Notes: generated by a model from the letters alone, not told the origin. Numbered from the stretch's first letter, positions 15,625 through 37,972 are shown. The stretch is DNA of 64,000 nt from Micrococcales bacterium (GCA_016719135.1 JADKAV010000021.1:1900-65899); one strand, 5' to 3'. Program-made: numbers and translations.

Positions 15625-15630
15625 AGGACC

Positions 15631-18164
<2,534 letters not shown>

Positions 18165-18268: not shown

Positions 18269-18300
18269 CGCACGCCATCGGCCAGACGCCGAGGCGTGCG
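18269..18300 (+). terminator. weak hairpin downstream of clpB
   Basis: CGCACGCC (18269-18276) and GGCGTGCG (18293-18300), 16-nt loop, followed by GTTTCC. No proper U-tract. Confidence 0.25.
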
Positions 18301-18334
18301 GTTTCCGTGGAAGCCAGTCGCACGTTCGCTCGAG

Positions 18335-18727
18335 ATGACGTCGACGGCGCTCGACCGACTGCAGGATGCCTGCTCGCAGTCCCCCGACGCTGAAACCGGG
18401 GGGCTTCTGATCGGCTCCGGCAGCACCTGCGCAGACGTCCGAATTCTGGCCAATAAGACTGTCGGCGATCGCCGGACCACCTATGCCGTCGACCCGGACG
18501 ATCTTCACCACGTCGAGCTCTCTTTGGGAAGCCGTCGGTCGATCGGATGGTGGCACAGCCATGTCGCCCGCTCGCCGCGACCGAGCCCGGGCGACGTGGC
18601 CGATGCGCCCTGGGCGACCTTCCAAGTCATCGTGTCGCTGGTCGCCGGAAGGGGTCTGCGGATTTCGCGGTGGTGGGTGGACCACCACGGCAGGTGGCAT
18701 GACTTGGGGGAGTTGCGGTGGCGCTGA
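18335..18727 (+). CDS. stand-alone JAB/MPN (JAMM) metallopeptidase (cluster gene A)
   Basis: Complete JAMM signature. Glu in ..DAETGGLLIG (GAA at 18392-18394). H-S-H-x7-S-x2-D in WWHSHVARSPRPSPGD (18554-18595). ATG 18335 is within ORF 18296..18727. Confidence 0.8.
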   Translation: MTSTALDRLQDACSQSPDAETGGLLIGSGSTCADVRILANKTVGDRRTTYAVDPDDLHHVELSLGSRRSIGWWHSHVARSPRPSPGDVADAPWATFQVIVSLVAGRGLRISRWWVDHHGRWHDLGELRWR

Positions 18728-19830
18728 GTCTGCTCGAGGAATGGGGGCGCGGTCTGTTCACCCTTCCCGGGATGGGCGAACGCATCCGCGGCGATCCTCC
18801 CGCCGAACCGGCCGGCGGCTGGCCGGAGGATTTCGACCCTGCTTCCCTGCCGACCCTGGCCGAGGAGGCCGTCCGGGTCGCGAGGCCTGCGATTCGAGCA
18901 CTGCTGCTGGCGGGTCACCGTCCGCTGACCGCGACCTTCGTCGGCCTGAAGGCGACCGCTGACATCGTGGTGGATATCGGCGCGCGGTCGTCGGCGTCGG
19001 TGGGTCCCGGGTCAGTGACTGGGCTCGATCCCGCCGCCTCCGTGGCAGTCAGCTTCGCAACGGTTCCGATGTTGAACGCCCGCAGCGTTTTCGAGGCGGT
19101 GTATCAAGTCGACGTGCTCGGGCCTGCCACCGACGACCGTGAGCCAGTGGAACCAACCGATGTCGACGTGGCCGGCATGAGTCTGGCCGCCGACCTCAGC
19201 GGCATCAGCGGCGACGGCTTCGAGCTGGATCTTGGCCGTGCAGAGCCCGGCAGCGTCCTGATCTGGGGGACCGGAACGGGTAGCCCGCCGCTTGCTGTCC
19301 TGACCGAATCGGTGGCGGCCTTCGTCCATCCGGTCATCGCGCGCCTGGCGAGCATTTACCAGGCCGCCGCCCCGCTGGCACCCGGTGGCACGGGTCTGTT
19401 GTGGCTGTTCGACCCCTCGACCTGGTGGTCGCCGGATTGGACGTCGGCCGATCCTCAGCGGGAGCGGGGCAAACGGGCTCTGACCAGAGTCGGCAATCGC
19501 GGGCTGACGGGAATCGGCACCGAGCTGAGCCATGCGAATTTCATCACCGGTCAGGTCGACGGCACCGGCCTTGTCAGCGGCGTGCTCACCGGTTGGTTCC
19601 CCAAAGCCAGCGCACGCAACCTGAGCCGCAAGGCCGGGCGGATGTTGCCGGTGGACGACACGATCACGCCCGAGCTGGTCGACTCCTGGTCCGACCAGTG
19701 CTGGTTGGACCACCTGCTTTCGTGGGCCAGATGGGGCGTCATACAGCCTCCGGCACTCCCGCAGGCCGACGTCGATATCGGCGCCGGCGCCGGCGACATC
19801 GACGAGATCGGTGACTGGTCACGGCCGTGA
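18718..19830 (+). CDS. hypothetical protein (cluster gene B, 370 aa)
   Basis: Intact ORF with good third-position G/C. The GTG start overlaps the JAB stop by 10 nt (GTGGCGCTGA). No motif recognised. The segment GDGFELDLGRAEPGSVLIWGTGTGSPPLAVLTESVAAFV is faintly reminiscent of SUKH/SMI1-type immunity domains (weak). Confidence 0.65.
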   Translation: MALSLLEEWGRGLFTLPGMGERIRGDPPAEPAGGWPEDFDPASLPTLAEEAVRVARPAIRALLLAGHRPLTATFVGLKATADIVVDIGARSSASVGPGSVTGLDPAASVAVSFATVPMLNARSVFEAVYQVDVLGPATDDREPVEPTDVDVAGMSLAADLSGISGDGFELDLGRAEPGSVLIWGTGTGSPPLAVLTESVAAFVHPVIARLASIYQAAAPLAPGGTGLLWLFDPSTWWSPDWTSADPQRERGKRALTRVGNRGLTGIGTELSHANFITGQVDGTGLVSGVLTGWFPKASARNLSRKAGRMLPVDDTITPELVDSWSDQCWLDHLLSWARWGVIQPPALPQADVDIGAGAGDIDEIGDWSRP

Positions 19831-20152
19831 TGAACGCGGACCGGTCCCAGGTCGCCTAGCCGTCACCGGCGACAGCGAACTCGTCGCTTGGCTCATCAAC
19901 CGCTGGCACGGCGTGCAGACGATCGAGGACGCCGTCTGCTGGGAACTGATCCGCAAGGACGATGACAAGGACGAGTTGCTGGTGGTCGCCGCGCCGGGGG
20001 TGCAGATCAGCGTGCCGCAGGACCCCAATCCGTGGTGGGAATGGACCATCGTCAGGGTGCAGGACCCGGCGCTCGTGCCGAACTGGGGCGAGCGCATCAT
20101 GCTCGACGTCCTGCTCCCTTCCCGATCGCCCTTGAGCCGCGCCCGGACTTGA
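19811..20152 (+). CDS. hypothetical protein segment C (probably the N-terminal part of one C-D-E protein)
   Basis: ORF 19811..20152 (..DSELVAWLINRWHGVQTIEDAVCWELIRKDDDKDELLVVAAPG..). The last ~10 codons look out-of-frame, while the +2 frame continues sensibly (..LLPFPIALEPRPDLNSWPSNKPPDLDPDNPTPTPVDP..) from ~20120. Alternative start: ATG 19830 (TGATG overlap with B) plus a shift at ~19857. Confidence 0.5.
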   Translation: MTGHGRDERGPVPGRLAVTGDSELVAWLINRWHGVQTIEDAVCWELIRKDDDKDELLVVAAPGVQISVPQDPNPWWEWTIVRVQDPALVPNWGERIMLDVLLPSRSPLSRART

Positions 20153-21039
20153 ACTCGTGGCCGAGCAACAAGCCCCCGGATCTCGACCCGGACAACCCGA
20201 CACCGACCCCGGTGGATCCCGTGGTGATGGTCTTTCCCAGCCCCACCGGTTGCCGCATGATATCCGTGTACGAGAACGGCGCCCGCGCTGGAGATCCGTA
20301 CTTCGTCGCGGAGTTGACCGTGAGTGAGACCTCCGGAGTGGATCGTTACGCCATCGATGCCCTGATGGGTCTGACCTTCGACTTCGGGTACGACGCCACC
20401 GTCTCCCGACCGCGGATCACGATAGTGAGCATCTGGGCGAGCTCCGACGAGGTGGTGGACATCACCTACGCGGTGCCGACCTTCCGCTTCTGCCAGTACC
20501 ACTGCAGGCTGACCCCGGACTCGACCGAAATGCCCCGCTTCGGTGAATCGCACCCGGTGCCTCAGAGTGACCTGGTCTGGCCGTGGGAGGAGAACCCCGG
20601 GGGAGTGCCCCTCACCATGCACCTGCCCGCGGGCGTCATGGCCCCGGACGGCTCGATCACCCAGCAGGACGTCAATCAGATCACCGACGCCATGTGGGGA
20701 GATGCGATCTGGGGGCAATACTGGACCACCAGCAAGGCCAAGCCCGGCACCACGGTCAACGGGGAATGGATGCAGATGGTCGCCGACTTCGCTGTCGGCC
20801 TGATCCCGTGGGTGGGAGATGCCGTCGACGTCGCCGAGTTCGGCTACGCGATGTTCAGCGGCAAGGACCGCTGGGGTCGTCCGCTGACGAATTTCGACCT
20901 CGTCGTCCTCGGAGCCTGCGCTGCCCTGCCGTTCGTCTCCACTGGCATGGTCAAAGGTCTGGCCCATGGCCAGACGCATGAGTGTGGACGAGATCGTGAC
21001 GGACGCGGCGAGAGCACCGTTCGTGGCCCACGGTGGTGA
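20032..21039 (+). CDS. hypothetical protein segment D with a PT-TG-like pre-toxin module
   Basis: ORF 20032..21039. At 20779-20940 it encodes VADFAVGLIPWVGDAVDVAEFGYAMFSGKDRWGRPLTNFDLVVLGACAALPFVS. This matches, from memory, the pre-toxin TG (PT-TG) pattern of polymorphic toxins (..IP.VGD..D......G.D..tG..L...dr......lP.v). The last ~25 codons are Arg/Gly-rich and look out-of-frame. Confidence 0.5.
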   Translation: MVGMDHRQGAGPGARAELGRAHHARRPAPFPIALEPRPDLNSWPSNKPPDLDPDNPTPTPVDPVVMVFPSPTGCRMISVYENGARAGDPYFVAELTVSETSGVDRYAIDALMGLTFDFGYDATVSRPRITIVSIWASSDEVVDITYAVPTFRFCQYHCRLTPDSTEMPRFGESHPVPQSDLVWPWEENPGGVPLTMHLPAGVMAPDGSITQQDVNQITDAMWGDAIWGQYWTTSKAKPGTTVNGEWMQMVADFAVGLIPWVGDAVDVAEFGYAMFSGKDRWGRPLTNFDLVVLGACAALPFVSTGMVKGLAHGQTHECGRDRDGRGESTVRGPRW

Positions 21040-22348
21040 CGACTTCTGGGAGACGATGGCAAAACTCGTCGTGAACCCCAGTCGGCCGGGCACCGAGGAG
21101 GCGATCGATGCCGCCCGGGCGGGCAGCCGCCGTCTCCAGCAACTGCCCATTGCAGAACGACGACAGGTGATCCGTTCCATGCGGGTTGTCCTCGAACAGT
21201 GCAGCGAGGAGATCGCCTCGAAGGTGACCTCGCGGACGCTGGCACTCGGTGATCTGCTCAAGAATGACAACGAGTTCTGGGTGGCTCCGCTGCAGTGGCA
21301 TTACCAACGGTGGCGGCGGGCCCGCATCACCGCGGCCGAGAAGGCCGGGGCGTCGATCCCCACGGACATCAGCCCGGCCGACTACTGGCAGGCCTCCCGG
21401 GGCCGGCCGCGCGCGATGTTCGACTCGCTGCTGGGACTGACGCCGACCGAACAGGCCGCGCTGGCCAAGAAGAACGCGCTCAGCAGCAGCAAATGGGGAC
21501 CCGTGCCCACCGTCACCCGGGCCGGAGGTGTACGCGCGGCTTTCCTGGTCGGGCGCGTCGGCGACATCCTGGCTGCGGTCCCGGTGCAGCACCGACAGCG
21601 GATCGAGGCGCTGCTGGCCCGGCTGTCACCGGACGGCACTGCCGCGGGGATCGATGCCGCCGGCCTGCGCAAGCTCATGGGTGACAATGCGACCCTTCAC
21701 CCGGACGAGCTTGGAGCGCGCCTGGCCGGAGCGCTGGAGATCATGGTCGACGAGGCGGCGCAGGCCGGGGCGAACGTCGACGACCTATTGGCGCTAAACC
21801 GGGTCGAGGGCATCTTCAAGGAGATCGTGGTACTCAGCGGGCCCGGTTACCGGCAGCAAGCAGCGGAGATCTTCGTGATCGCCAAGGCGCTGGCCGATGG
21901 TGACGTGATCCGGATCCAGGAGGATCTGCTCACCGCGGCCGGCACGGTCGCCAAAGGCCCGGATGTGATCCGTTCCGCCGGTGGGGTGCCACAGATCGTG
22001 CAGGTCACGGCGCAGGTCTCGGTGGACGCGATACTGGGCTCCGGCAACAAGGTCATGAAGCAGTTCACCGACGACTTGCGGCGGGTGTACGACCAGTTCG
22101 GCGGCTTGCGACTTCCCTCGTTCGACGACCCGACGGTCATCGTGGACGCATCGACCGAGATCGTGTTCAAAGTCGACTTCGACTACCTGCTGCTCAACTC
22201 CCGCAAGACGGCCGACGACCTAGAGGACCAGTGGGTGGAGGACGCCTTCGTCCTCCAGCAACACCTCGAGGACTACATCGCGGCGATGGATCTTCCCGGT
22301 CCTGCGCTGACTGTGGTGGTTGAGGCGTTCCGGAGGACGGACCCATGA
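20966..22348 (+). CDS. hypothetical protein segment E (460 aa; possibly the C-terminal region of C-D-E)
   Basis: Intact 460-aa ORF in the same frame as segment C. ATG 20966 lies 74 nt inside segment D. Reading ..ALPFVSTGMVKGLA then ARRMSVDEIVTDAA.. across a 1-nt shift near 20960 is at least as plausible as a separate gene. No motif recognised. Confidence 0.6.
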   Translation: MARRMSVDEIVTDAARAPFVAHGGDDFWETMAKLVVNPSRPGTEEAIDAARAGSRRLQQLPIAERRQVIRSMRVVLEQCSEEIASKVTSRTLALGDLLKNDNEFWVAPLQWHYQRWRRARITAAEKAGASIPTDISPADYWQASRGRPRAMFDSLLGLTPTEQAALAKKNALSSSKWGPVPTVTRAGGVRAAFLVGRVGDILAAVPVQHRQRIEALLARLSPDGTAAGIDAAGLRKLMGDNATLHPDELGARLAGALEIMVDEAAQAGANVDDLLALNRVEGIFKEIVVLSGPGYRQQAAEIFVIAKALADGDVIRIQEDLLTAAGTVAKGPDVIRSAGGVPQIVQVTAQVSVDAILGSGNKVMKQFTDDLRRVYDQFGGLRLPSFDDPTVIVDASTEIVFKVDFDYLLLNSRKTADDLEDQWVEDAFVLQQHLEDYIAAMDLPGPALTVVVEAFRRTDP

Positions 22349-25300
22349 TCGTTCGCCTGATCGCAGACCTGTTCGCGCCGCTCATCCTGGCGATCACCGA
22401 CCGCGACGACCTCGAAGTACTGCTCGTAGATCTCGGGGTAAGCGTCACCGACGACTTCCCGGACGACCCGTTGGACGGTCTGCGGGCAGTCGCCCCGATC
22501 GGTGCCGTCGAGGACCTCGTGGACCTGATCGGTCCCCTGCTGGACGATCCCGAGGCGGACCTCGATGCAACCACGGTCGCGGCGGTTGTCGACGCCGCCG
22601 ATTCGTTGCTCACGGGGCTGCGAGACGTGGTCCCGGCCTCCGCGGCTCCGACGTGGTTGGACGCTGCCGAGCTTCAGGCCGCGCTGGAGAACCTGCCCGG
22701 CTATCTGCTCTACCGGTGGATCGAATCCCTGTCCCCGGTGACGGCAGCCGTTCTGGATCTCGCTGGCGCGGTGGATGTGATCGAAGCCTCTGGACGAAGG
22801 GTTCTTGACCACCAGGCGGTGGCGGCCTTGTTCGCGGATCCCATCGTGCACAGCGAGCAGATCTATCGCCCGGATGGTTCGTTGGACGCCAACCTCTTGT
22901 TGGGCAGGCTCTTGGTGGTCGCGCGGGCGGCGGGTCTGGAGCTCACCGGGGACGGGATTCAGGTGCCACCATGGCTCTGTACGACCCGCAGGACCGCGGA
23001 TCCGTCCAACTGCACGTGGCCGCGGAGGATCCGACCTGGTGCTGGTGGCCAACGTGGCCGGCCAACCGCGGACGTCGTTCGACGTGGCCGACTTCCTTCT
23101 GGTCACGCTGGAGGCCGATCGTTCGGTGTTACCCGGTGCCTCGCTGCGGGTGTCGGGTGAGGGTTTGGCCACCGTCGCACCGGTGGTGGGTTCACCGCGT
23201 CTCACCGCGCGGGCGGCGCTGACCTCCCCGGAGGAACCGTGGTCGTTGATCGGAAGCCGGCCCGGTACTCGCATCGAGGTCTCCAGCGTGAGTTTCGAGG
23301 CCGGCGTCCGTTTCGGGTCGCAGGCCGGTGTCCACGTCCTGCTCGAGGTTCCCACCGCGGGCATGTCTCTGACGATCGAACCCGGTGATGCCGACTCGTT
23401 CCTGGGATCAGTGCTGGGCGACACCTCGATCCGGGTGCCGTTCGACTTCTCCATGGGCTACGACAGCGCGACCGGATTGACTTCATCCGGGGGTCTCGGT
23501 GTGGCCTTCAAGGTGCCGTTGGCCCTGCGTCTGGGCCCCATCGAGATTGCTGGGCTGGACGTGGCAGCCGTGATCGACGGATCGACGCTCGCGGTCACCG
23601 CCACAGCCGACGTCCTGGGTTCAATCGGTCCCTTGTCGCTGGCCCTGTCCGGAATCGGGGCCGCTGCCAGACTCGACCTGGCTGCCGGTTCCGCGCCCCG
23701 GATCGGGTTCGAACCGCCGACCGGGGTCGGGTTGGGGATCGATCTCGGGGTGGCGAAAGGTGGCGGATTCCTCGACATTCACCCTGACGAGGGTCGCTAC
23801 GACGGTGTCATCGAACTCGAGGTGATCGCAGTCGGCGTCTCGGCGTTCGTCATCGTCGAGACTGACCCCTGACCTTGACAGCTGGTCGATGATGATGGCC
23901 CTCTTCATCCAGATCCCGGCCATCCAACTCGGGTTCGGTTTCGTTGTCCGGTCTGGGCGGTCTGGCGGGTATCAATCGTGGCATCGACGCCGACGCTCTC
24001 CGGTGATGCGGTGCGGTCAGGTCCCTGGACACGATCCTGTTCCCCAGACCCGATCGCGCAGGCACCGCTGATCATCGACACGCTGTCGTCCATCTTCCCG
24101 GTCGCCGACGGCCAGTACGTCTTCGGACCCGTGGTGAAGATCGGCTGGGGCACGCCGACCCTGGTCGACCTGAGCGTGGGCGTGGTCATCGAGGTGCCCG
24201 ATCCGATCCGCATAGCGATCATCGGGTCCGTCGCGGCGATCCTGCCGCGTCCGGAAATGCCACTGGTGGAGCTTCATCTCGACGTCGCGGGAGTGGTCGA
24301 TTTCGAGGCGGGAACACTGGCCGTCGACGCGAGCCTGCACCACTCGAGCATCATCGGGTTCAGTCTCGCCGGCGACATGGCACTGCGCGCCTCCTTCCGG
24401 GACGCGCCGTCGCTGCTGCTCGCCCTCGGCGGCTTCCACCGCGACTTCGAACCGCCCGCCGGGTTTCCCCGGCTCGCCCGGCTGTCGATCGGGCTGAACT
24501 CGGGGCCGCTGTTCCGGATCTCGTTCGACTGCTACATCGCGATCACGTCGAACACCGTGCAGTTCGGCGCCGCGTTCGAGATCGTGGCCGAAGTCGGCAG
24601 CTTTGCCATCGAGGGCGGCACCGAGTTCGACGCGCTCATCCGATTCAACCCGTTCGCTCTGACGCCGTCGATCGGGCTGTACATCTCGGTCAGTGCTGCT
24701 GGCTTCGACCTGATGGGCGTGTGGCTGTCGGGGCGACTGGAGGGCCCGAATCCATGGCACATCACCGGATTCGCGGAGTTCAAAAGCTCTCGGGATGAAG
24801 AAGCAGGTGAACGTCGACGAGATCATCGGCACACGGTCGGCCGAGATCACACCGGCGATCCCCGACGTGCTTGCGATGGTCATCAAGCGCTCGCGCTGGA
24901 CGGTGCCTGGACGGCCGCGGTCTCCGGCACCGATGGTGTCACGCTGCGGAGCGCATCCCAGACGAACGACGATCTGTAGGCCGGTCCGCGGGGCCGCCTG
25001 GAGGTGGGCCAGAACGTCGTTCCGCTCGGTGAACCACTGGAAGTACGGCAACGCCGGGGTTGCTGCACTCGAGTTCCGGTTGCGGCCCGGCGCAGGGCTG
25101 GCACTGACCGGAACTGTTCGCGACTTCGGTTCTCCCGGGTCACTACACATTTCAAACCGAAGGGCGACTTGCGGCGCCGTCGTTCGAATTGATGGATGCC
25201 GGGATCGTTCTCGGGGAGGCGCGGTGCGGTCCATCACGACCGACCCGGCTGGGGTTCGAGTCCATCCTGCTCGATACCGACCTCAGGCTTTCAGGCCCCT

Positions 25301-25506
25301 CCACCGGTGCGGTGTCGCCGGGGTCCGTCGTGCCGTTCGGTCGGGTGCAGGCACTCTGATCATCAGCCGATGACCACGGATTCCGGGCCACAGGTACCGA
25401 CACCTACGGTGTCGTCAGGCCCACCTTCGTCGTGGCTGGCGCCTTGAGCGGCAAAGGGTACCGAACCGGCCGCCAGCACCTTCCTTGCGGCTGCGACGCG
25501 GGTTGA
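22345..25506 (+). CDS. very large hypothetical protein F (about 1050 aa after repair), DUF6603-like; many frame breaks
   Basis: ATG 22345 overlaps the stop of E (ATGA). It is rebuilt from ORFs 22345..23160, 22971..23222, 22805..23872, 23889..24071, 23978..24979, 24795..25373, 25004..25192 and 25196..25447. Blocks: KGGGFLDIHPDEGRYDGVIELEVIAVGVSAFVIVET, IQLGFGF..SGLGGLAGINRGIDADALR, LDTILFP.PDPIAQAPLIIDTL, GGFHRDFEPPAGFPRLARL, ITSNTVQFGAAFE, APSFELMDAGIV. From memory these match DUF6603-type proteins (unverified). The 3' end is uncertain (25447-25529). Confidence 0.6.
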
Positions 25507-25545
25507 CCGTGGCCAGGTGATCGCCATGGCCGGGGAGAACGACCG

Positions 25546-28377
25546 ATGAGCGAATCCATTCAGTTCCTGCCGTGGTTCCGGACCGGGTTGGCCGCGACGA
25601 TCGAAGGTGACACCGGTGGTACCCCGGTGATGCTGTCCTTGGCGGTCGCCGTCGAGGCTGTCCGCGCCGACGATGGCGATACAGAGGTCACCGACCTTCC
25701 CGGGCGTTCGATCAGGTTGCACGGGCCGGGCGCGGTGACTGCCGTCCATGACGATCAGATCATCCGGCGATACCCCGAACCCGGTGCCACCGATCCGGAG
25801 CCCAACTACTTTTGCGCCGTCGAGTTCAGTAGCCCCGACTTCCCGTGGCGCTTCACGCCGGCCGCGCCTGATGCGGACAACCGGCTGCAACCGTGGCTGG
25901 CCCTGGTGGTGGTGGAGGACGTTCCCGGCGTTCTGCGTTCGGGGCCCTTCGGGCTGGACGTACTGCACATCGAGGATTCCGCACGTGAGCTGCCTCCCCC
26001 GGCAGACGTCTGGGCGTGGGCTCATGTGCAGGTAGATTCCGCCGACCCCGACGTCGATCCGGTGGCACTGTACGCGCGCAGTCCCGCAGCACTGCGCTCG
26101 CGACTGCTCTGCCCGCGCAGGCTCATCGCCGACCGGTCGTGGATCGCGTGTGTCGTTCCCACCTACGAGGCGGGCCGACTAGCTGGCCTGGGCATCGTCA
26201 ACAGCGGCGCCACGGGCCACGCCTGGCCCGCCACTGGTCCGGTGGAACTGCCGGTGTACCACACGTGGAGGTTCCGGACCAGCGAGCGCGGCGATTTCGA
26301 ATCGCTGGTGCGCCGATTGAGGCCGGTCGAACTGCCGCCGGCGGTCGGCGTCCGAGACCTCGACATCAGCCGTCCTGGAAGCGGACTGCCGGACGCGGAG
26401 GGCACGATTGTCAGCTTCGTCGGTGCGCTGGTCTCCCCCGCGGCCACCGCCCGGCAGTGGAGCCCCCGTCACCGCCGGCAGACCGCAGCGGCCCTGCGCG
26501 AGGTGCTCCGGGACGACGTACCGCAACCGGCCCCCGACATCGACTACGACCCGCTCCAGCACGACCCCGTGGTGCGTCCGGCGCTGTACGGGTCGGTCCA
26601 GTCGCAATGCACCAGCCTCGACGATTCGGCGCCGCGCTGGATGGAACAACTCAACCTGGACCCTTCGGTCCGGTCCGTGGGCAGGGTTGGAGCGGCCGTG
26701 GTCCGGCGTGATCAAGAGCAACTCATGGACGCGGCGTGGGAGGCGGCCAAGGGCCTTGAGGAGGTGAACCGGCGGCTGCGGGCGGCAACCCTGGCGCTCG
26801 AGGCCGGGACAGCGCTTCAGCACCGACTCGACGCACTGCCGGGCGAACGGCTCCTGCAGTTCGCTGGGCCCTCGCTGGCCCGTGTCGCGGGGGGCCGGGG
26901 TACTTTGCTGCGCGAACTCAAGCAGTCGATCTCCCCGACGCCGCCGGACTCGGCGCCTACCGGCGGATCGCCCGACCGCGCGGTCCCGTCTCGTGCGACT
27001 CGGTCTGCGTGATCCTGCCACCTCGGTCAACCGGCGGCTGCTGGACGCGCCCGGCGGGCCGATCACGCATCACGCCAGGAGTGGCGGTACCGGCCGGATG
27101 TGATGTGGCGGGACTCGAGCGGGACCTGCCCTCCGACGCCGACGATCCCGCGTTCGACATCGACCCGCAGATCCGTCGCTGGATCGATCCGGACAGCGAG
27201 GGGCTCACTGTGAGGCGGCTCGCGCAACCGACTCCGGAGGGCCCCGGTTTAAGCCAAAGCCGGGTCGTGGAGTGGAGGTGCTCGGCGTGCCCAGCCGCGA
27301 TCGAATGGTCGTGGCTGCGCGGACTCCGCCCGCGTCAGGCTGTCCGGACCCGCGAGCTGCGCCCGTCGGCCAGCGCCGCCACCCTCCAAAGCCGCGAGCC
27401 TGCGGACGTCAATCCGGCCATCGCCGCCCGGTTGCGCACGACGATCAAGCCCCTCCTGGCGCCTGGCGAACGGCCGTCCCAGCCGGATGTGGGCCACGCC
27501 GTCCTTCCCGCTGGCCCTGTACACGCGGGTCCAGGAACTCTCCATCAGTACCTGGTCCCCGGCGTGGGCGATATCCCGGACGAGTCCGTCGGGCTGCTCG
27601 AGACGAATCCCCGGTACGTGGAGTCGCTGCTCGTCGGTGCCAATCACGAACTCAGTCGTGAATTCCTGTGGCGCGAATACCCCGCGCAACTGCACGACAC
27701 CTGGTTCCAGCAGTTCTGGAACGCCCCCGCCCCCGACATCAACCCCATCGGTGAGTGGACACCGCACACGGAACTTGGGGCCAGACCGGCTCGACCAGGC
27801 CCGACCTGGTGATCGTCATCAAAGGGACGTTCCCCGCCGGTACCCCGACGTCCGCGTGTTCGCCGCCCGTGCCCAGTGGCGCCAGGAAAACGAGACAGGC
27901 CGGTGGTTCAGGGACGTGGCCGCCGACGCAGAGCAACGAGGGCCCTGTGCTGGCCGGCGAGTTGGCGCCTGGGATCGTCTTCTACGGTTTCGACCTCGAC
28001 GTCGATCAGGCTCCGGGGCGCAGCCCTAGGAACTGGCCTGGCGACCCGGGCTGGTTCTTCGTGCTGGAGGAACAGCCGCCTGGCATACGTTTCGGCCTGG
28101 ACAGCCGGACCGGGTCGGTGGGAGGTGCGGGGCAGGGTGTCGCGCCGGCCAGCTGGGATGACCTCACATGGGCCAATGTGGCATCGGCTGACGCGCAAGA
28201 GGCGCCGACGTTCATCGATCTCGCGGCTACTCCTGGCTTCGGAGCGCAGCGCTGCCAGGCGCAGGCGGCACCGATGAGTGGGGCACGGATGCTGCGGGGC
28301 AGGCCAGGATCACCGTTCAGCGTCCCGTGCAACTGAAGGTCCACGCGTCCGCGATGCTCGGTCAGGCGCACTCGTGA
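25546..28377 (+). CDS. very large hypothetical protein G (about 940 aa after repair); ~9 frame breaks in its 3' half
   Basis: ATG 25546 is preceded by GGGGAGAA. 25546-26940 is one clean frame (FLPWFRTGLA, IRLHGPGAVTAV, FSSPDFPWRFTPA, LQPWLALVVVED). The remainder is spliced from ORFs 26882..27103, 27009..27812, 27487..28029 and 27755..28336 plus a last frame ending at TGA 28375-28377 (..EWGTDAAGQARITVQRPVQLKVHASAMLGQAHS). Frames were chosen by hand-counted third-position G/C. Blocks: LLETNPRYVESLLVGANHELSREFLWREYP, DVPRRYPDVRVFAARA, GWFFVLEEQPPGIRFGLD. Confidence 0.6.
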
Positions 28378-31300
28378 TGCCGCCGGATCGTCCCAACGGC
28401 CCGGCGTCCGGTCCGGGGCCGCGACGGCGTGCCCGTCGGCGCCGGACCCCCGAACTCCGGGCATGCCGGGCGACCCCCGGGTGCCTGGAACTCCGGGCAT
28501 GCCGGGCGACCCGCGGGTGCCCGGACCGATTCCCGGCCGGGGACAACGGCCGATGCTGGATCGGATTCCGCCCGTGGAGTTGCGGCTACCTGACGCAGCG
28601 CCCCGTATCCCATCGCTGACCGGAAGCCTTGGCGGAATCGACCGGGAGGGGCTCGGGCTCTCACCAGACACACCGCTGTTGCTGCTGCCGGTCCGCCTGG
28701 AGACGAAGTACCGGCGCGCCAATCAGGAGCTTCGCATCCGGGTGTTCCCCGACCAGATCCATCTCGACAGCGACGACCCTGGACTGACCGCTCACGAGAT
28801 CGAAGCGGGAGGCTCGTTCTGGACCCAGTACGCAGGTGCGGACCAGACCACGCAGGAAGCCTTGTGGGTCGCGTTGTGCGAAGCGGTGGGTGAGAATCGC
28901 GCGGGCCATGTGGCACGAACCGTCCGTGCCGCACCTGGCCCGTTGTCGGCGCATGATGTCGACCCCCGGCTTCCACCGTTCTGCTGCCGCACCGTTGGAA
29001 CGTGCTGTGTTTCCAGGGCGACCAGTTGGTGCACAGCCAAGCCGGCGCGGTCATTGATCAGACGATCGAGGCGAGTCCGGATCCTCTGGCCGACACGGTC
29101 ACCCTCGACGCGAGCGGTCTGCAGGTGAGTCCCGCGACGGCCTGGATGTTCGACTGGGACACCGCGGTCGAGGTGGGCATGGCGATGAGCATCGATCTGC
29201 GGGAACTGGAGGGCGGACCCGCATTCTCCACAGTCCTTGTGCTCGGGCTGCGGCCCGGCGAGGATCCGCAGGCCGCCGCCGCCGAGTTCGCAGAAGTGCT
29301 GGAGATGCACGAGCGGTCCTCCGGGCTGGCATTCGTGCCCGATGGCACGGCGACGAACAACGTGCCGGACGAACCCGCCGGCTGGACCAGACACGATCGG
29401 CAGCTGCGCGCTGCGGTCAAGCCCGAGGCAACGGCATATGACGCGCTGGCCGGTCGCAACGCCGCAGTGCTCGCTCGCGCGCTCGGTCTGGCCGACCCGA
29501 CCTGCCTGGCACGGGCCAAGGGGTCCCGGCGAACCGACCGGCAAGACGCCGTGCTGATGAACAAAGCCTTGTACGAGCCCGTTCTTGGACACTACGTCGA
29601 CCGTCTGTTGGGCGACGGGGTGAAACCCGGTCTGGATCGCGCCGCCGAACTGGCGTTGCGCAAGCTGTTCATCGACGAGGTCGCTGGCGGCAGTCCCCTG
29701 CCCGCATTGCCGGATCGGCCCTCAGCCGTATGGCATCTTGCCGATAGGAATCCTGCCGCCCCCAGCGATGGCACCAGAGGTCACCTCGTGCGCATTCTCG
29801 ACCTGCTCGAGCCCGAGTGGCGCAGGTCCGTCGACAACGTCGTGCGCATCGACCCGAACGCGACCGACACGGTCATCGTCGAAGGTGACTCCGGGTCCCG
29901 AGCCGGTCGATCTCATCCCGGCGGTGCTGGCGTCGCAGCCGCATGCGGCGCGGGTGTTCAGCCGCACGTTCTACTCGCTCGACGATGATTTCTGGGCCTT
30001 CCTGAGCCCCCAGCGGCTGTATTCCTTCATGGTCGACACCTGGATTCCGCAGGAGCACCCCGAACTCGTGGATTACATCGCGGCCATACCGCAGGGCGCG
30101 ACGATCGACACTCAGATTTCCCTGTGGGAGTTCGCCAAATCGATCGTGGTCTCCGACGACGATCTCGACGACGGCATCGGCTTCGACATCCCGGCGCAGC
30201 GCAAGCAGAACGCGATAGACACCATCGACAGCGTTCTGCTGCTTCTCGGGGGCTGGGAGTTCAGGCAGCGCCCCCACCGCACGCTGGGTCTCCCGCGGTG
30301 GAACGGTGCTCTGGGACATCCGCACCCGCCACAACTCGTCGATGGTCGATACGGCACGGAGCAGGAGTGGTCCTCAGAATCCCTGATCGGCGCCGCAGAT
30401 GTGCCCGACCAGCACGCTCCGCCTGCCTATCTGGCCGACCTGGCGGCTCGGTTCTCAAGTGCGCCGGGATCTGCCAGCTCCCCTGCCGGCCGAGTTCGCC
30501 CACCCACCCCTGCTGTACCAGTTGCTCAGCCTCACAGAGGCCTCGATGGATGAACCCCGACGGCGCCAGGCGACTGCCAAGGCGATCACCGGCCTCGCCG
30601 CGATCGCCGGCCGTCCCGGAGGATCCGACCAGCTCGAGCGGCTCATGCTGGAGACGCTGGGTCTGGTCACCAACCGGCTGGACGCCTGGGCGACGTCCGT
30701 TCACACGTCGCGGTTGGCCGAGTTGCGGGGAGACGACGACCCGCCAGCGGGAGGGATCCACATCGGTGCCTATGGCCTAGTGTGCGACCTGGCGCCGAGT
30801 CCTGATCGTGGCAGCAACGGCTTCGTCCACGCCCCGTCCCTGTCACACGCCGCGACGGCCGCCGTTCTGAGGTCGGCCTGGCTGAGCCACGGCACGACCG
30901 CCGCCGACTCGGCGGCTGCAGTGGATGTGTCCTCCGCGCGAATCCGGACCGCGCAGTGGGTGATCGACGGCATCCGCAACGGGCAGTCGCTGGGTGAGTT
31001 GCTCGGGTATCGATTCGAGCGGCTCCTGCACGACACCGCGGCCAGCGGCGCGACCCTTGACATCCGGCGGCAGGTGATCGCGTTGCGCAGAGCCCGTCGA
31101 CGGTGTCGAACTGCTGGAGATGCGCGACCGGCTGGCGCTGGGGGGCCGGCTGGCCCCGGTCGCCGCACAGATACGCCGTGGCCTCGACGACATCGCCTGG
31201 GTGGCCGACGCGGTGGCCGACGCTGCTCTGTTCGACGGAACGCATCAGCTCCTGCAGGGGAACTCCGCGCGGGCCGCGGCGATGTTCGACTCCATGAGTC

Positions 31301-32668
31301 TGGGCTTGGGTACGCCCCCGGAGTTGCGCTCTCACGTCAGCGCTCACGGCGGGCTGACCGTCGAACATCGCGTGCTGGTCGTACTCGATGCGCGTTCCCG
31401 TCCGGATGGGCGTTGGCCGCAGGGGATGCGCGGGATGCTCGCACCTGCCCTTGAGCGGTGGGCGCAGAGTCTCCTGCCCGACCCGGCGTCGGTGCTGCTG
31501 CGGGTGGTGGATCGTCCTGAGGACGGTGTGCGCCAGATCCCCCTGGCCGACTTGGGGATGGCAGCTCTCGACGTCGTGGCATTGACCCATCCCGACCCGA
31601 CCGGGATCACCCCGGCGTTGCGCTGCCTTCTGCAGCACAGGTTCGGGCTGTCCGACGACGTCCGGGTCCTGACCGGCGAAGGGGGCGGCGTCACCTTCGA
31701 GGAAGTCCAGTTGATCTGTCGTGAGATCGCCGCGGTGCTTCAGAGATCGGTGGTCGGGACGAGCGCTGCCTTCCATCCGGCGACCGGTGACGAACCGGAG
31801 GGGGCGCCCCCTCCGGCGCTTGTCGCCCACGTCGATCTTCTGCGGGAGACGTTCGCCGATGCCCTGGCCGCCGATTTCCCCTCACGGTGGGAAGTGTTGG
31901 CCCGATACGGATGGGCGCCGGGACCGACCCGGAGGCCACCGGGCGCAACTGGCCGCCCGGCTGGCGAAACTGGACGCCAAGCGGTCGGCCGAAGGCGTCA
32001 GCGCCACGGATACGTTGACCGCTCTGTTCGCCAGCGCCCCGCACGTGGTGCCTGAAGTCACCTACTCCGCGAGCAGCGCCGGTGCTCTCGTGAGGTTCTC
32101 GGCCGGTCTTGCGAGCAGCGACGAGATCGACGATTGGTTGGACGCGGTGGCCCATGTGCGACCGGATGTCGCACGCCTGTCCGGGGCGCTGATGCTCTCG
32201 AACCTCGCCGGGGTGCCGGCCAGCGCTGTGGCAGTGGGTCAGGACGTGGTGGTCCCCGGTGAGCGCTGGGCCGCGACCCACCTGCCGCCGCCCGGTGCGG
32301 CGGGCCGGGTGTCGGTGTGTGCTGCAACTGTGGATGGTTGGATCCCGCGGGAAGGCGATGAAGTCTGCGTATTGATCATCGATGCCTGGTCCGAGCAGAT
32401 TCCCCGCACCGACGCAGTCACCGGCGTCGCATTCCACTACGACGCCCCGAGCAACCGCCCCCCGCAGTCATGGTTGCTCGCCACCGCTCCCGCGGACCAG
32501 CCGTGGTCGATGGGGTTGATCGCCGACATGGTTCTCGACACCGTCGACTGGGCGCGCAAACGTATGGTCGCGCCTGAAGACCTCGGCGACTGGGGACACG
32601 GCATCCCCACGTCGGTCGTGCCCGGGGTCGTGACCCCCTGGCCCGGCGAAGAGGAGTCCGAATCATGA
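28377..32668 (+). CDS. very large hypothetical protein H (about 1430 aa after repair); ~8 frame breaks
   Basis: ATG 28377 overlaps the stop of G (TGATG). Alternative starts are ATG 28463 or ATG 28550. It is rebuilt from ORFs 28278..28619, 28463..29128, 29002..29988, 29738..30553, 30399..31454, 31120..32055 and 31721..32668. Blocks: LLLPVRLETKYR..LRIRVFPDQIHLD, LLPHRWNVLCFQG, ALRIGPQPYGILP, TNRLDAWATS, NGFVHAPSLSHAATAAVLRSAW, RNGQSLGELLGYRFERLLH, GVAFHYDAPSNRPPQSWLLA. Confidence 0.6.
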
Positions 32669-34373
32669 GATGGAGCCGGATCGAATCCATGGGCCGGGCC
32701 GCCGACTTCGCGGATGGGATCGCAGCACGCATCGCGGACCCTCTTTGGATGCTCGGCAGGCAGTGGCAACTCGGTGAACTCACCGGTGACGACGCCACTC
32801 AGCCCGCCGCCGTCAGGGTTCGTGTCCGGCACGCGCCGCTGGTGGGCTATCAAGCCGGCGATGACCGCCCTCGGCGGCTTGGGCCAGAACAACCCCTCGA
32901 ACGACTCGTCGAGGCAGGTCCGCCACCGCCCATGGGTCCTGGGGCTGTCCACGACACGGTTCGAGCCGGTGAACGCCTGCGCCGCCGCCTCGATCGTCTG
33001 GGGCTGTCCCAGGCGGTGGCGGCGTTGCGTACGGCATTTCCAGTCGACCCACATGGCCAGGGAGCGGTCCGGCTGGGTGCCACCGAACAGGCACGTCTGG
33101 ACATGCTGATCCGGCGCGGCATGGACGGCCGCGCGGTGGCAGCGGCCACCGGCAGCACCCTCCAGCAAGCGCTTTCCGAGTTGCCCGCAGCGGAGCGGCC
33201 AGCGCTATGGATGTCATCCGCACATGGTCCAAAGGTGAAGACGTCGAGTCCTCGGCGGCGTGGATCCCCGAACGCTTCGAGCATCGGTTCTCCGTGTTCG
33301 CGCAGGACCGCGATGAGTTGATCGCGCTGCGGGCGCAAGCGCACCAGGGTGGGATGCTCGACTGGCACAGCTTCGACGTCGACCCGGATGCCGCCCTGTC
33401 CTCGACCCCGACTGGGAGTGATCGCGGGTCGTCCACGGAGGTGACCGCCATCGCGGCACCCGTACGCTTTGCAGGGATGCCCGCCTCCCGGTGGTGGGAG
33501 TTCGAGGACGGTGAGGTGAACCTCGGCGATCTCGACGCGGGGCCGGCGGATCTGGCCAGGTTGGCCGTGGCCGAGTTCGCGACGGTCTACAACGATGATT
33601 GGTTCGTCGTGCCGGTACGGGTTCAGCGGTCATCACTGGTCCGGGTTGAAGAACTCACGATCATTGACACCTTCGGCGAGAAACACACGATCCGGCCCGC
33701 CTCGTTGATCGATTCCCGACGCGACGCTGAGTCGTCCGATGAGACCCGAGCGTGGCGCTTCTTCGAACTCGACGGCGACCCGCACCATGCGCAGAAGCGG
33801 GCCCCCTGGCTGCTCGTGCCGCCCTCCTTGGCCAGTACTTTGCATGGCCCGCAGCTCGAACGCGTTGCCTTGGCTCGCGACGAGGATGCCAATCTGGCGT
33901 GGGCGATCGAGCGGATCGTCGAAGGCCCCCTCGGCCGGCCCATCGACCGCGCCAGCACCTGGGCGGGTAACGATCGGGCACCGTCGTCGCAGCACAGAGC
34001 AGATGCGACGTGGTGGTACGAACTCGAAACGCCGCCCCCGCCATGGTGGATCCCCCTGGTCCCCGAGCGCCAGGATCCGACCACCGAGCAGGTCCGGCTG
34101 CGCCGTGCCCGGATGGCCACCTGGGACGGACAGGATCCGCGCGACATCGGCCCCAAGGGAACACTGCTGGAGCCGGGCGGGCCATTCTTCGTGTACGAGG
34201 AAGAAGTGCCGCGAAGCGGTGCCACGGTGTCCCGGTCGTGGCAGTGGGCACGGTGGCAGGATGGGTCCGCGCACCTGTGGCTGCAGCGGAGCAAGCAGAA
34301 CGGCCACGGCGAACGATCCGCCGGACTGCGTTGGGACGTGCTCCACGACAGCCCACCTGGCGACGGGTCGTGA
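32665..34373 (+). CDS. large hypothetical protein I (about 570 aa after repair); one frame break near 33197
   Basis: ATG 32665 overlaps the stop of H (ATGA). ORFs 32665..33321 and 33207..34373 join at ..ELPAAERPAL | MDVIRTWSKGEDV... Blocks: DPLWMLGRQWQLGELTGDDATQPAAV, PERFEHRFSVFA, HQGGMLDWHSFDV, MPASRWWEFEDGEVNLGDLDAGPADLARLAVAEFATVYNDDWFVVPV. Confidence 0.65.
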
Positions 34374-34457: not shown

Positions 34458-34495
34458 CGGCGCCAACCGCATCCGGCCCGATTAAGGTGGCGGCC

Positions 34496-35639
34496 ATGCG
34501 CACAGTCCTCATCGCCGCCACCGCAGGAGCACTCGTCCTGACCGGGGTGGGAGCAGCTCAAGCAGACAGCACAGCTTCCGGAGAGGTGGCATCCGGTGGC
34601 GCCAAAAACGTGACGGTCATGACCCGCAATCTGTTCCTGGGTGCCGACCTCGGTCCGGCGTTGGGCGCCACCGGCGGTGGGGAGTTCGTCACCGCGGCCG
34701 GTGCGATCTTCCGCCAGCTCGAGGCCACCAACTTCCCGCAGCGGGCCAAGGGCCTGGCCGACGAGATCCAAACGCGCAAACCCGGACCTGGTCGGCCTGC
34801 AGGAGGTCGTCGCTGTGGCGCAAGGGCCCGGTGAACCTGAACGCGGTGTTCAACCAGGAGCCTTCCGCCAAAGGTCTACCAGGACTTCCTGAAGATCCTG
34901 ATGAAGCGGATCAACAAAGGGCAAGGTCAAGTACGAGGTCGTCAAAGTGCAGGACGAGTTCGACTTCGAGGCCCCGCGGACACCGACAACAACCCGAAGA
35001 CCGGGACGAACGGTGCCGAGGCGAACTAACGGCTCACCATGCGTGACGCCATCCCTCAAACGCGCCGACAAGGGGATTGCGACCAAGGACCTGCAAGGGG
35101 CGCAGTACACGAAGAAGAACAGCTTCAGCGTGAAGGTCGCCGGGTTCGTCACGGTGACGTCGCTGCGGGGGTGGCTGTCGACCCGCGCGAAAATGCGCGG
35201 CGGCAAGTGGTTCACGTTCGCGAACACCCACCTGGAAGCTTTCGACGACCGCACCCAGGTGCCCAGCATCCGCGCGAAGCAGGCCAAGGAGTTCGCCAAA
35301 GCGATGGCCAAGGTCAAGGGCCCGCTGATCGCGGTCGGCGATTTCAACTCCGACTTCCCGGGCCTGGGTGCCCGGCGACGAGCAGGCGTTCGAGTATTGC
35401 GCAAGGCAGGGCTTCAGGACATCGGCACGACCACGCCGATGAGCTGCTGCATCGCGACCTCCGACGACATGCAGAACGGCGGCTCGATCGACGAGTTCGA
35501 CCACCGCGTCGACCAGATCTTCACCACCACCCCGAAGAGGGTCAAGAAGATCAAGACCTGGGTAGTGGGCCGGGAGCAGTCCTACGGGTTCTGGCACTCA
35601 GATCACGCCGGGGTCGTGGGCAAGTACCTGCTCAAGTAG
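34496..35639 (+). CDS. secreted endonuclease/exonuclease/phosphatase (EEP) family protein; at least 4 frame breaks
   Basis: Signal-like N-terminus MRTVLIAATAGALVLTGVGAAQA. EEP blocks ..VTVMTRNLFLGADL.., ..PDLVGLQEV.. (in ORF 34641..34892), ..IAVGDFNSD.., ..FWHSDHAGV... Fragments are ORFs 34487..34834, 34641..34892, 34831..35046 and 34947..35639. Confidence 0.75.
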
Positions 35640-37326
35640 TCACTGCAGGGTCCGCAGCCAGGCGCTGGTCTCCTGCCGCTTCTCGCGGACCCACTCGATG
35701 CGTGCGCCCGCGACGATCAGTGCCGCGCCTGCCAGTGCCAACGCCATCCAGCGCGGCAGCGTGTCCAGGGTGGCCCAGAGCTGGGCGGTCGCAGCGATCG
35801 AGACAGCCAGCGTCGCTGGAACGACCAGTCCCAGCAGGTGACCACGCACTCCCAGGAGCAGGCACACGACTCCGGCGAGCATCACGATCAGGAAGCGTGC
35901 CAGTGACGCCGTCGACCAGGGTTCGTCCCAGATCACCAGCGCGCTGGGCAGTAGGGCGGCGCTCAGCGCGGGAGCGTACAGGATCAGGGAGCGGCGCTCG
36001 CCGGACCGGAACTGGACGAGGCCCGCCAGCAGCAGCAGTCCCGCCAGGACCAGGGCCGGGACCTCGAAGAAGGGAACCTCGGTCACCTGCAGCAGGAACG
36101 CCGTCTGCACGAACAGCGCTGCGAACCACGCGAGGACGGCTGCTCCCTTGCGCAACGAGAACGCGAACAGGCCGACACCCGCGACGCCGAAGAACCATTG
36201 CGGATCCGGTGGAGCCGTTCCGATGAGCCAGGTACTCCACAGCGCACCGACGGTCACCGCGGCCAGGGCGATGCCCCAGCGTGCGAGCAGGAACAGCAGC
36301 GTGGTGCCAGCAACCGCCACGACCACCGTCAGTGCGATGGAGGTCGGCACCAGCAGCGAGAGCAGGCCCAGCCAGAAGCCGAACAGCGGCCAGCCGATCC
36401 AGATCGAGACGCGGTGTCCCAGGACATCCTGCAGCAACAGCAGAGCCAGCAGGGCCACCGCAACCACGACCACAGCGCCGGTGGGCGGGTCGTAGCCGAG
36501 CAGGGACAGCGTCAGGCCCGAGGCGAGCACCAGACTCAGCCCTTGCGGTCACCCGCACGGGCAGCCGGTCGGTTCTCAACGGGAACGCCACCAGGACCGC
36601 CGTCAGCGCCACGTACGCGATGCCGGACAGCGTGGTGGTGAGCTCGGATGCCAGTGGGCCAGTGACCATTCCCATTGCGCTGGCCAGCAGCACCAGCGAG
36701 CTCAGCCAGCCGAGCCACAACCACGATGTGACACCGAAGCGGTGACCCGCCAGGAGGCCGAACGCGACCGCCACCGAGCAGACAACCAAGGAGTAGGGCG
36801 AGTCGATATCCACCCAATCCTCGGGCAAGGCGCCCAACCCGGGTCCAGCGGCCGCCACAATGAGGCCCAGTGCGAACGCGACCACGGCCAGTGCTTCGGT
36901 GGTCCGGGGGACACGTGTGCGCAGCCGGATGGCGGCGAATCCGCTGAGCAGCGCCGAACCGGCCAGGATCGCCAGTTGTCCGAACGGCCCGAACAGTTCC
37001 CACGCGACCGCCACGAACACCAGGCCAGCGAGAATCAGCAGCGCCGCACCGAGAGTGACCAGAAGTGTCTGTGCCGAGCCCTTGCGCGGGGGTGTGACCG
37101 GCGGGTGTGGCCCCCCGGCCGGCCAGATGCCGTAGGCCTGTGCGGTGGCCGGGTCCGGCGGTGGTGCTTGTTCGGCGATCCGATCAGCGAGCCACTGCCG
37201 GCGCTGGGTGAGGTATTCGTACTCGCGCAGGTACCCCGCGTACCCGCGGAACCCGCAGGTGCAGGTGAGCATTCCGTCGGCGTCCGGGACCGACAGGGCG
37301 TGGCCGCACTGTGGGCATTGGCTCAC
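35640..37326 (-). CDS. polytopic membrane protein with N-terminal zinc-ribbon; frame broken near 36540
   Basis: N-terminus MSQCPQCGHALSVPDADGMLTCTCGF (CxxC..CxC), then more than 10 hydrophobic segments. ORF 35632..37326 (N-terminal part) joins ORF 35640..36530 at ..DRLPVRVTA | GLSLVLASGL... Possibly the SCO7613-like membrane protein family (from memory). Confidence 0.65.
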
Positions 37327-37467
37327 ATGTCAACCGTACGCCGTGCGGCTTACCCAGCGGTGGACCACCCGAAGTGGGCAACCACCGTTGGCGGATGCCA
37401 GGTTCACGAGGTGCAATCTGGACAAATCACGCATAACGCCGCTGAAAACCTCCCAAAGATGGCAGAT

Positions 37468-37971: not shown

Positions 37972-37972
37972 G

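Follow-up and report, generated by a model that had tools for sequence, protein, structure and literature searches.

A 64,000-nucleotide stretch of DNA from a Micrococcales bacterium (GCA_016719135.1, JADKAV010000021.1:1900-65899; hereafter the window) carries, downstream of clpB, a cluster of very large genes, and the question is what kind of system these genes encode. A preliminary description, made from the sequence alone, had presented the cluster (genes A to I, positions 18,296 to 34,373) as a candidate undescribed system led by a JAB peptidase. Our comparative analysis revealed that F, G, H and I represent a copy of an operon, F-G-(S)-H-I, that is widespread but uncharacterised and in which F is a DUF6603 protein and S is a small protein encoded by a separate gene in some loci.

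Hidden Markov models (HMMs) of the core families, built for this analysis, match F, G, H and I in this order within the window and cover nearly the whole of each profile, and the four proteins are collinear with intact orthologues at 33-52% identity. A search with the DUF6603 piece of the window, run on one genome per species, led to two related loci: one in Micromonospora (L001), intact and collinear, and one in a Bacteroidota metagenome-assembled genome (MAG; L002), which is only partial. Window F aligns collinearly with the F proteins of L001, L002, L003 and L005, and H does so over its whole length with those of L001, L003 and L005; I, the most conserved core member, shares 42-48% identity with its counterpart in L001. 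Judged by its profile matches, F is clearly a member of DUF6603 (PF20248): two window pieces match at 4.9e-72 and 1.2e-14 (243.6 and 54.2 bits, with a cut-off of 27), and intact F orthologues score 395-410 bits over profile positions 2-499. The window core is ordered on one strand with the DUF6603 gene first, as is the rule in the family.

This gene order recurs in more than 85 independent loci. A set of 80 metagenome loci was fetched with a G alignment and scanned with the family HMMs, synteny being counted only where the contig extends far enough; F lies upstream of G in 53 of 53 loci, H downstream of G in 59 of 60 and I after a complete H in 34 of 34, counts that describe the closest relatives of one query and not a random sample. 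Every core match in these loci is on one strand. The same order is found in genomes of Micromonospora, Methylococcus, Actinoplanes, Streptomyces, Gemmatirosa, Variovorax, Actinopolymorpha and Nonomuraea and, more widely, in genomes of seven bacterial phyla and on a haloarchaeal plasmid, and 4-nt overlaps often recur at the core junctions in complete genomes. G is present on four haloarchaeal megaplasmids, and the Salinigranum marinum plasmid NZ_CP100462.1 (L093, 5829-25465) has the arrangement PhoD-like-F-G-H-I. The PGAP annotation of this plasmid masks the kinship of H and I, because it labels them by appended modules ('BGTF surface domain-containing' and 'lamin tail domain-containing', respectively). 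F-G-(S)-H-I is inherited together in Bacteria and Haloarchaea; the co-occurrence by which the preliminary description had proposed to judge the cluster is strict for F to I, with A, B and E excepted.

The families are large and nearly nameless. A protein search with a G fragment gave 211 matches and the I family has more than 3,056, none functionally named in either case and none of the latter with a Pfam domain; the F search gave 71 matches, all labelled DUF6603. Against 1.84 billion representative proteins, the G profile matched 6,681 clusters (defined at 50% identity) at E<=1e-3 and 3,748 at E<=1e-30, again without a functional name.

The system is not phage-borne. A pattern scan of the 2.9 million viral contigs in IMG/VR gave no relatives of G. 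The single match in the phage collection (L094) is MT835531.1, 'UNVERIFIED: Bacteriophage sp.', a human faecal entry of 40 kb and 77% G+C in which F(partial)-G-H-I occupies positions 1-9955; this entry is probably misclassified actinobacterial DNA. The flanks examined consist mostly of housekeeping genes; in Methylococcus, they also include an integrase and a fragment of a recombinase. Among individual loci, a 302-aa (amino acid) protein with a twin-arginine translocation (TAT) signal stands upstream of G, in place of F, in L006 of Nitrospira sp. (CP092081.1); in L002, PLD-F-G is followed by an EAD11-FGE-sulfatase protein and an alpha/beta-hydrolase-PKD protein; and in L092 of Nonomuraea endophytica, an nSTAND1-WD40 conflict-system NTPase is encoded at 21264-23276, directly downstream of I.

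In the complete genomes, F measures about 1,100 aa, G 770-1,200, S 270 (coiled-coil), H 1,200-2,300 and I 500-900. S and the C-terminal domain of G are paralogous (hhalign probability 96%), and an S-like domain is part of G itself in the window and in L001; hhalign comparisons among the core families gave no other paralogy. The extreme N-terminus of G (window 25561-25600, for example) carries a near-universal (F/Y)xFLPWxRxG motif followed by LxGPGDVxGxD, and I starts with a conserved DPLWLLxRQWQxGEF, and this conservation of the G and I termini suggests sites of interaction or processing. In about 4,400 aa of conserved core we found no NTPase, nuclease, methylase or nucleic-acid-binding domain. 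The preliminary description had seen no P-loop, and indeed a Walker A motif is not conserved in any core family; nor do the core proteins have a signal peptide or a convincing transmembrane segment.

Searches for known machinery gave the same picture as the preliminary description, which had recognised no characterised secretion, phage-tail, Tc-toxin or defence system: profile libraries, the PDB and fold searches with G and F were all negative. Scans of Pfam, NCBIfam, PADLOC and PHROGs with the window pieces and the intact Micromonospora orthologues returned only JAB and DUF6603. PADLOC-DB v2 gave zero matches for seven Micromonospora orthologues and for window B and E, and in PADLOC and NCBIfam gene A matched generic JAB models only. 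Neither phmmer with four orthologues nor profile searches with F, G, H and I found anything meaningful in the PDB, and S and the N-terminus of H, both of which look like coiled coils, yielded only coiled-coil-type noise in profile searches. Pfam scans of the window and the orthologues contained none of the Tc-toxin domains VRP1, SpvB, TcdB and RHS/YD, and no Tc chain appeared in the Foldseek searches with the G and F models. As to tail-like machines, there was no Pfam match and no PHROGs match except that of the JAB protein to a 'tail protein' family. The open-access literature on DUF6603/PF20248 and on the effector combinations held nothing relevant, and a description under another name may exist. 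For G, H and I we found no family name, paper or solved relative, and F is only a domain of unknown function (DUF); F-G-(S)-H-I lies outside every known kind tested.

Structure prediction points to unusual proteins. The AlphaFold2 model of Methylococcus G, computed from a 52-sequence alignment, is confident (predicted local distance difference test, pLDDT, 89.1; predicted template modelling score, pTM, 0.83); its N- and C-terminal parts are rich in beta structure and surround a helical core, which includes a helix of 40 residues. Foldseek with this model gave no match at E<=1e-3 in the PDB or BFVD, only noise-level Ig-like hits. In the model of an F orthologue (P0241; pLDDT 81.6, pTM 0.50), about 230 N-terminal residues form a helical domain, and some 40 long antiparallel strands come after it; the only PDB matches by Foldseek are weak ones, to giant beta-barrels (SlpA, LptD, ushers, BtuB) and to the ApoB beta-belt, at TM-scores of 0.15-0.28 and root-mean-square deviations above 19 A. 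We read the modelled F as a very large beta-meander sheet and do not take its resemblance to barrels for homology. An outer-membrane beta-barrel of the LptD, usher, SlpA or TonB-dependent type was considered for F and rejected: the protein lacks a signal peptide, occurs in monoderm Actinobacteria and in Haloarchaea, and reaches only the low TM-scores just given.

What varies between loci is the gene directly upstream of F. Most often a large hydrolase is encoded there. By Pfam assignment, this slot holds two-HKD PLD enzymes in some loci, PhoD-like phosphoesterases in eight metagenome loci and on the archaeal plasmid, and Peptidase_M64, Peptidase_S8, CHAT-TPR or Peptidase_M14 proteins in others; in the window it is filled by A (JAB), B, C/D and E. 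The slot enzymes have no signal peptides, no small immunity-like open reading frame (ORF) lies between slot enzyme and F, and no N- or C-terminal docking motif common to the enzyme classes was seen.

The enzyme appears to be paired with a part of F. Six loci have two F genes (L011, L015, L016, L017, L019, L021; several of them Nitrospira-type) with a different gene before each, the identified enzymes being PLD before F1 in L016, S8 before F2 in L011 and an M64-like peptidase before the second F in L021. Over their full length, the F1 copies share 80-91% identity with the lone F of PLD loci, whereas F1 and F2 can be aligned only over the C-terminal ~750-810 aa (76-89% in the beta-domain) and differ in their N-terminal ~300-350 residues. 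When only the ~400 N-terminal residues of F are compared, the Bacteroidota PLD-type domain matches the Nitrospira-type PLD-type domain at ~1e-40 and the archaeal PhoD-type domain matches the bacterial PhoD-type domain at 2e-25; matches across enzyme classes are far weaker or absent. These alignments indicate that F has a constant C-terminal DUF6603 beta-sheet and an N-terminal helical domain that differs according to the enzyme. Since the best matches of the F N-domain fall within an enzyme class, even across phyla and domains of life, the simplest reading is that 'enzyme + F N-domain' would be exchanged as a cassette, with phylogeny as a partial confounder.

In the window, none of C/D/E, F, G, H and I is a single open frame: each falls into two to six frame pieces. 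The breaks were mapped with a codon-usage frame-tracking model and with frameshift-aware homologue alignment, which overcalls shifts where conservation is poor, so the count of about 17 insertions or deletions (indels) is approximate. The preliminary description had warned of a dead locus, and a decaying pseudogene cluster with some 17 real frameshifts would fit the density of frame switches at 19.8-34.4 kb beside the clean frames of purD, purB and purC (53-64 kb), an AMP-binding gene and a DUF6421 gene in the flanks. It would also fit the residues conserved at >=90% in the family, of which the window copies keep 79-86% against a family mean of 96-97%, although these figures are lowered by out-of-frame residues near the shifts and by the distance of the window from the mostly Nitrospira-like, soil-derived set. 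Frame breaks also occur outside the cluster, however: clpB (15595-18164) is frameshifted near 17512, with ClpB profile positions 1-635 and 635-852 in two frames; an SBP_bac_5 solute-binding gene (806-2936, - strand) is split near 2093, with profile positions 3-98 and 98-365 in different ORFs; and the region 36500-53200 is as fragmented as the cluster, with dense short same-strand frame switches. The indels are therefore patchy but window-wide, and the patchy fragmentation suggests uneven polishing or uneven coverage.

An independent 1,691-nt Logan contig from run SRR23924733, apparently of the same organism, matches window positions 25827-27510 at 98.6%. It differs from the window by 7 substitutions and, outnumbering them, 14 gap openings, nearly all of single bases in homopolymer runs. 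At about 26930, where the homologue alignment had predicted a missing base, the contig has an extra C after 26926; with this C added, the G frame grows from 488 to 755 aa, and the match to the G profile covers positions 4-663 instead of 4-460. Given the independent contig and the repaired G, we treat the frame breaks as assembly noise. The ~17 frameshifts are sequencing or assembly indels and not gene decay, for which they should not be taken; the cluster is probably functional in the organism, and we consider decay of the window copy very unlikely.

What, then, might the operon do? Because the hydrolases are swappable, a role in conflict, as the preliminary description had suggested, is the most reasonable reading; the function may be toxin delivery or defence. 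We see about an even chance that F-G-(S)-H-I is a new kind of NTPase-free prokaryotic machine, made of folds without a solved relative and common to Bacteria and Archaea, that would deploy hydrolases through cassette-specific DUF6603 adaptors, for toxin delivery or for cell suicide. More specifically, we tentatively favour, at somewhat below even probability, an NTP-independent carrier complex that would deliver hydrolases outside the cell. In the cytoplasm, and without hydrolysing NTP, the core proteins and the enzyme would come together in a large complex in which the N-terminal domain of F would hold the cognate enzyme and the DUF6603 beta-sheet would dock it on a G/S/H/I scaffold, partly held by coiled coils. 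The complex would act outside the producer after release by lysis or by another route, and would bind its target via the adhesion-type modules found as insertions in the G, H and I proteins of different lineages. The hydrolase might then be presented or translocated in the manner of Tc or binary toxins, to neither of which the complex would be related, with the giant beta-sheet of F as the candidate membrane-active or translocating element. In the window, the JAMM peptidase might process or release the local payload.

The modules in question are FG-GAP/VCBS repeats inserted in actinobacterial G, CarboxypepD_reg in Bacteroidota G and at the N-terminus of PLD enzymes, and two LTD (lamin-tail) domains at the end of archaeal I, beside the 'BGTF surface domain' that PGAP assigns to archaeal H. 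Such inserted or appended modules are typical of extracytoplasmic binding proteins. Several observations nevertheless weigh against an extracellular carrier. These insertions are lineage-specific, and the domain at the C-terminus of actinobacterial G, DUF3892, was suggested by others (PMC12419801) to sense RNA or ribosomes inside the cell. The EAD11 gene of L002 and the nSTAND1-WD40 gene adjoin their loci, and CHAT, PLD and metallophosphoesterase proteins are also typical suicide effectors of intracellular immunity. None of the loci was seen to have a secretin, a holin or a lysis cassette beside it, which together with the lack of signal peptides makes the release route pure conjecture. The F model is weak (pTM 0.50, beta-barrel TM-scores of 0.15-0.28), and the synteny counts carry the sampling bias noted above. 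The operon is not always complete: L006 (371-11725) has G-S-H-I without a DUF6603 gene, and L002 (242-13001) has PLD-F-G without H-I, so that F-G can stand as a separate module.

The main rival to delivery outside the cell is an intracellular immune or abortive-infection system, in which G/S/H/I would form a sensor scaffold and F would silence the hydrolase until phage or another insult triggers it and the producer is killed or arrested. The effectors (PLD, CHAT-TPR, metallophosphoesterase, S8 and zincin peptidases, JAB) do overlap those of known prokaryotic immune systems, and the missing signal peptides, the absence of an immunity gene beside the enzymes, the DUF3892 domain of actinobacterial G and the EAD11 and nSTAND1-WD40 neighbours in two loci all speak for it. 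So do the patchy cross-phylum distribution, with I 55-67% identical between Methylococcus and Nitrospira, the integrase/recombinase context in Methylococcus and the plasmid copies. Yet no core protein matches a PADLOC model, and the ~4,400-aa core lacks NTPase, nuclease, methylase and nucleic-acid-binding domains, at least one of which is present, to our knowledge, in every known large defence system. The flanks examined hold housekeeping genes for the most part and not defence islands, the FG-GAP/VCBS, LTD, CarboxypepD_reg and BGTF insertions are of the extracytoplasmic sort, and none of the named matches comes from Enterobacteria, Bacillus or Pseudomonas. On balance, an immune system seems unlikely.

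A self-assembling surface or extracellular scaffold without any part in conflict, displaying enzymes for scavenging or envelope remodelling in the manner of a cellulosome or an S-layer array, would account for the adhesion and surface modules, for hosts that live freely in soil, freshwater and hypersaline habitats, and for enzymes (PhoD, M14, M64, S8) that are classically secreted scavengers; the TAT-signal protein before G in one Nitrospira genome and the secreted EEP enzyme after I in the window point the same way. We nevertheless hold it to be quite unlikely, as neither the core proteins nor the enzymes carry an export signal, the distribution is patchy and mobile-element-linked instead of lineage-wide, CHAT-TPR and two-HKD PLD would be unusual for scavenging, and swapping of an effector with its cognate adaptor is typical of conflict systems. 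Finally, the operon could be a diverged version of a known machine, be it a phage tail or tailocin, an extracellular contractile injection system (eCIS) or type VI secretion system (T6SS), a Tc (ABC) toxin, a set of type VII secretion system substrates, or a Bil/CBASS-type JAB system. Large genes without signal peptides are indeed shared with Tc toxins and eCIS, and the JAB gene weakly matches a PHROGs 'tail protein' family and CBASS Cap3 models; this gene, however, is absent from all other loci, Pfam, PHROGs, NCBIfam and PADLOC found no sheath, tube, baseplate, RHS, SpvB, VRP1, AAA+, E1, E2 or Ubl in the window or the orthologues, and neither sequence and profile searches of the PDB nor fold searches of the PDB and BFVD with the G model gave a match. 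A known machine in disguise is therefore extremely improbable.

Turning to the window copy itself, genes A to I (Table 1) form an unbroken run of high-GC3 (G+C content at third codon positions) reading frames on the + strand at 18.3-34.4 kb, in a window of ~67% G+C.

Table 1. Genes of the cluster, with positions counted from the first nucleotide of the window.
Gene	Product	Position	Strand	Remarks
A	JAB/JAMM metallopeptidase, 130 aa	18335..18727	+	Alternative GTG start at 18296; Pfam Prok-JAB
B	370 aa, no detectable family	18718..19830	+	High GC3, intact frame
C/D	~380 aa	19811..20955	+	One frameshift near 20116; variable slot
E	460 aa, apparently helical	20966..22348	+	ORF, GC3 0.83; stop overlaps start of F
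F	DUF6603 protein, ~1,040 aa	22345..25506	+	At least 5 indels; 3' end 25447 or 25506
G	943-aa core protein	25546..28377	+	At least 4 indels; G-HMM covers the whole region in three frames
H	~1,430-aa core protein	28377..32668	+	Six frame pieces; start overlaps stop of G
I	~569-aa core protein	32665..34373	+	One frameshift near 33200; start overlaps stop of H

The coordinates, the shared direction and the junctions of the preliminary description were all recovered, including every quoted start/stop overlap: GTGGCGCTGA at 18718-18727 between A and B (a 10-nt overlap), TGATG at 19828-19832 between B and C, ATGA at 22345-22348 between E and F, TGATG at 28375-28379 between G and H, and ATGA at 32665-32668 between H and I. 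The only real gap precedes G, where a Shine-Dalgarno-like GGGGAG motif lies ~8 nt 5' of the ATG at 25546. A single co-directional, translationally coupled cluster of very large proteins is thereby borne out. Its borders are likewise as described, with clpB upstream and, directly after I, an Exo_endo_phos (EEP-family) gene at 34484-35639 (+) whose product has a Sec-type signal peptide, MRTVLIAATAGALVLTGVGAAQA. This gene adds a further degradative enzyme next to the operon and appears frameshifted too. The absence of a tRNA at the borders was confirmed by a scan of the 64-kb window, which contained no tRNA and no Rfam match at all. In the housekeeping flank, positions 5788-7887 (-) encode an intact 699-aa protein with DUF4350 and DUF6421.

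Genes A to E belong to the window's own version of the slot. Gene A matches Pfam Prok-JAB at 3.6e-8 (33.7 bits, cut-off 25), and in translation its JAMM motif reads intact, HSHVARSPRPSPGD corresponding to HxHx7Sx2D with the AETGG glutamate upstream; the profile match and these residues identify A as a bona fide JAMM peptidase of the JAB/JAMM (MPN+) family. With respect to ubiquitin-like conjugation (Bil, CBASS Cap2/Cap3, 6A-MBL), A matches the Cap3 and cap2_3 models only below threshold, and B, C/D and E gave no E1, E2 or Ubl match in Pfam, NCBIfam or PADLOC. Gene B is without a match in Pfam, NCBIfam, PADLOC and PHROGs, and E has none in Pfam; E may be a gene of its own (ATG 20966), or an indel near 20954 (frame switch 20953/20954) may have cut it off from C/D, whose C-terminal part it would then be. 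None of A, B and E has a homologue in any of 88 related loci, and elsewhere the slot holds unrelated enzymes. The JAB lead, which the preliminary description had made the hallmark of the cluster, is therefore a local feature and not a property of the system; by this comparison, A and B are lineage-specific, A being an accessory gene outside the conserved core.

C/D is collinear with residues 486-558 (36% identity) and 811-867 (51%) of the 1015-aa protein before F in Micromonospora L001. One of these two common stretches is a glycine-rich hydrophobic helical hairpin with which C/D ends (20782-20952). The preliminary description had called this part pre-toxin-like, a label that did not hold: Pfam PT-TG was undetected even at E<=10 in window 20689-20955 and in its L001 counterpart, and the only Pfam match of the hairpin region is a weak one to DUF4112 (0.0019; 18.8 bits, below the cut-off of 23.3). 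A polymorphic toxin with PT-TG was also considered and rejected, as no trafficking or toxin domain was found in B, C/D and E. No small immunity ORF separates E from F, which are joined directly by the ATGA overlap. The PT-TG architectures described in PMC13483458 include none like the window cluster.

The operon matters first by its reach: thousands of diverse soil, freshwater and hypersaline genomes devote 13-16 kb to it, and the hosts range from antibiotic producers such as Streptomyces to Nitrospira, methanotrophs and haloarchaea, with three of the four or five core proteins lacking a family name, a literature and a structural relative. Should it prove to be a new machine, it would form a class comparable to Tc toxins, eCIS and the large defence systems. 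If enzymes are delivered, protein toxins would have a new route, valid for monoderm, diderm and archaeal envelopes alike, and cargo delivery a possible chassis, since payload and adaptor domain change together as a natural cassette; an immune function, for its part, would mean immunity achieved without any NTPase. Either reading promises new folds and makes a testable prediction of modular pairing between adaptor and cargo.

Among described families and systems, Pfam DUF6603 (PF20248) accommodates F and leaves its constant partners G, H and I without any family. STAND/NACHT systems with EAD adaptors and gasdermin-protease pairs share with the operon their CHAT, PLD, phosphoesterase and subtilase effectors and their modular exchange, and EAD11 or nSTAND1 genes are occasional neighbours of the operon; its core, however, has no NTPase, no EAD/Death-like adaptor and no gasdermin-like protein, and no PADLOC model covers it. 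Binary (AB) toxins of the anthrax protective antigen (PA) type also combine a separate enzyme with a beta-rich partner, to which the modelled F may correspond as a large sheet or barrel. In contrast to PA, F is ~1,100 aa long, is not Sec-secreted and has no PA homology, barrel closure being unsupported at a pTM of 0.50, and the operon always has three or four further giant proteins.

The effector-adaptor modules of T6SS and eCIS (VgrG/PAAR, Tap/Eag-type) differ from the operon in having a sheath, tube, baseplate, ATPase and immunity genes, none of which it contains; F (DUF6603) is unrelated to the known adaptors, and no fold match to viral or tail proteins was found. What the two have in common is a conserved machine served by cassettes of an effector with its own adaptor, which can be duplicated and exchanged and which use PLD lipases and peptidases as effectors. 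From Tc (ABC) toxins, the operon is set apart by the lack of sequence, profile or fold similarity and of an RHS cocoon, SpvB and VRP1, by a payload that is a separate enzyme of 550-1,000 aa where the Tc payload is a C-terminal hypervariable region of ~30 kDa, by the absence of a lysis cassette at the loci seen and by its occurrence in Archaea. Like Tc toxins, the operon encodes several soluble subunits of very large size that lack signal peptides and NTPases and that, in the proposed carrier complex, would be assembled in the producer from one operon, would carry a variable enzymatic payload and would be decorated by Ig-like binding modules on their large subunits.

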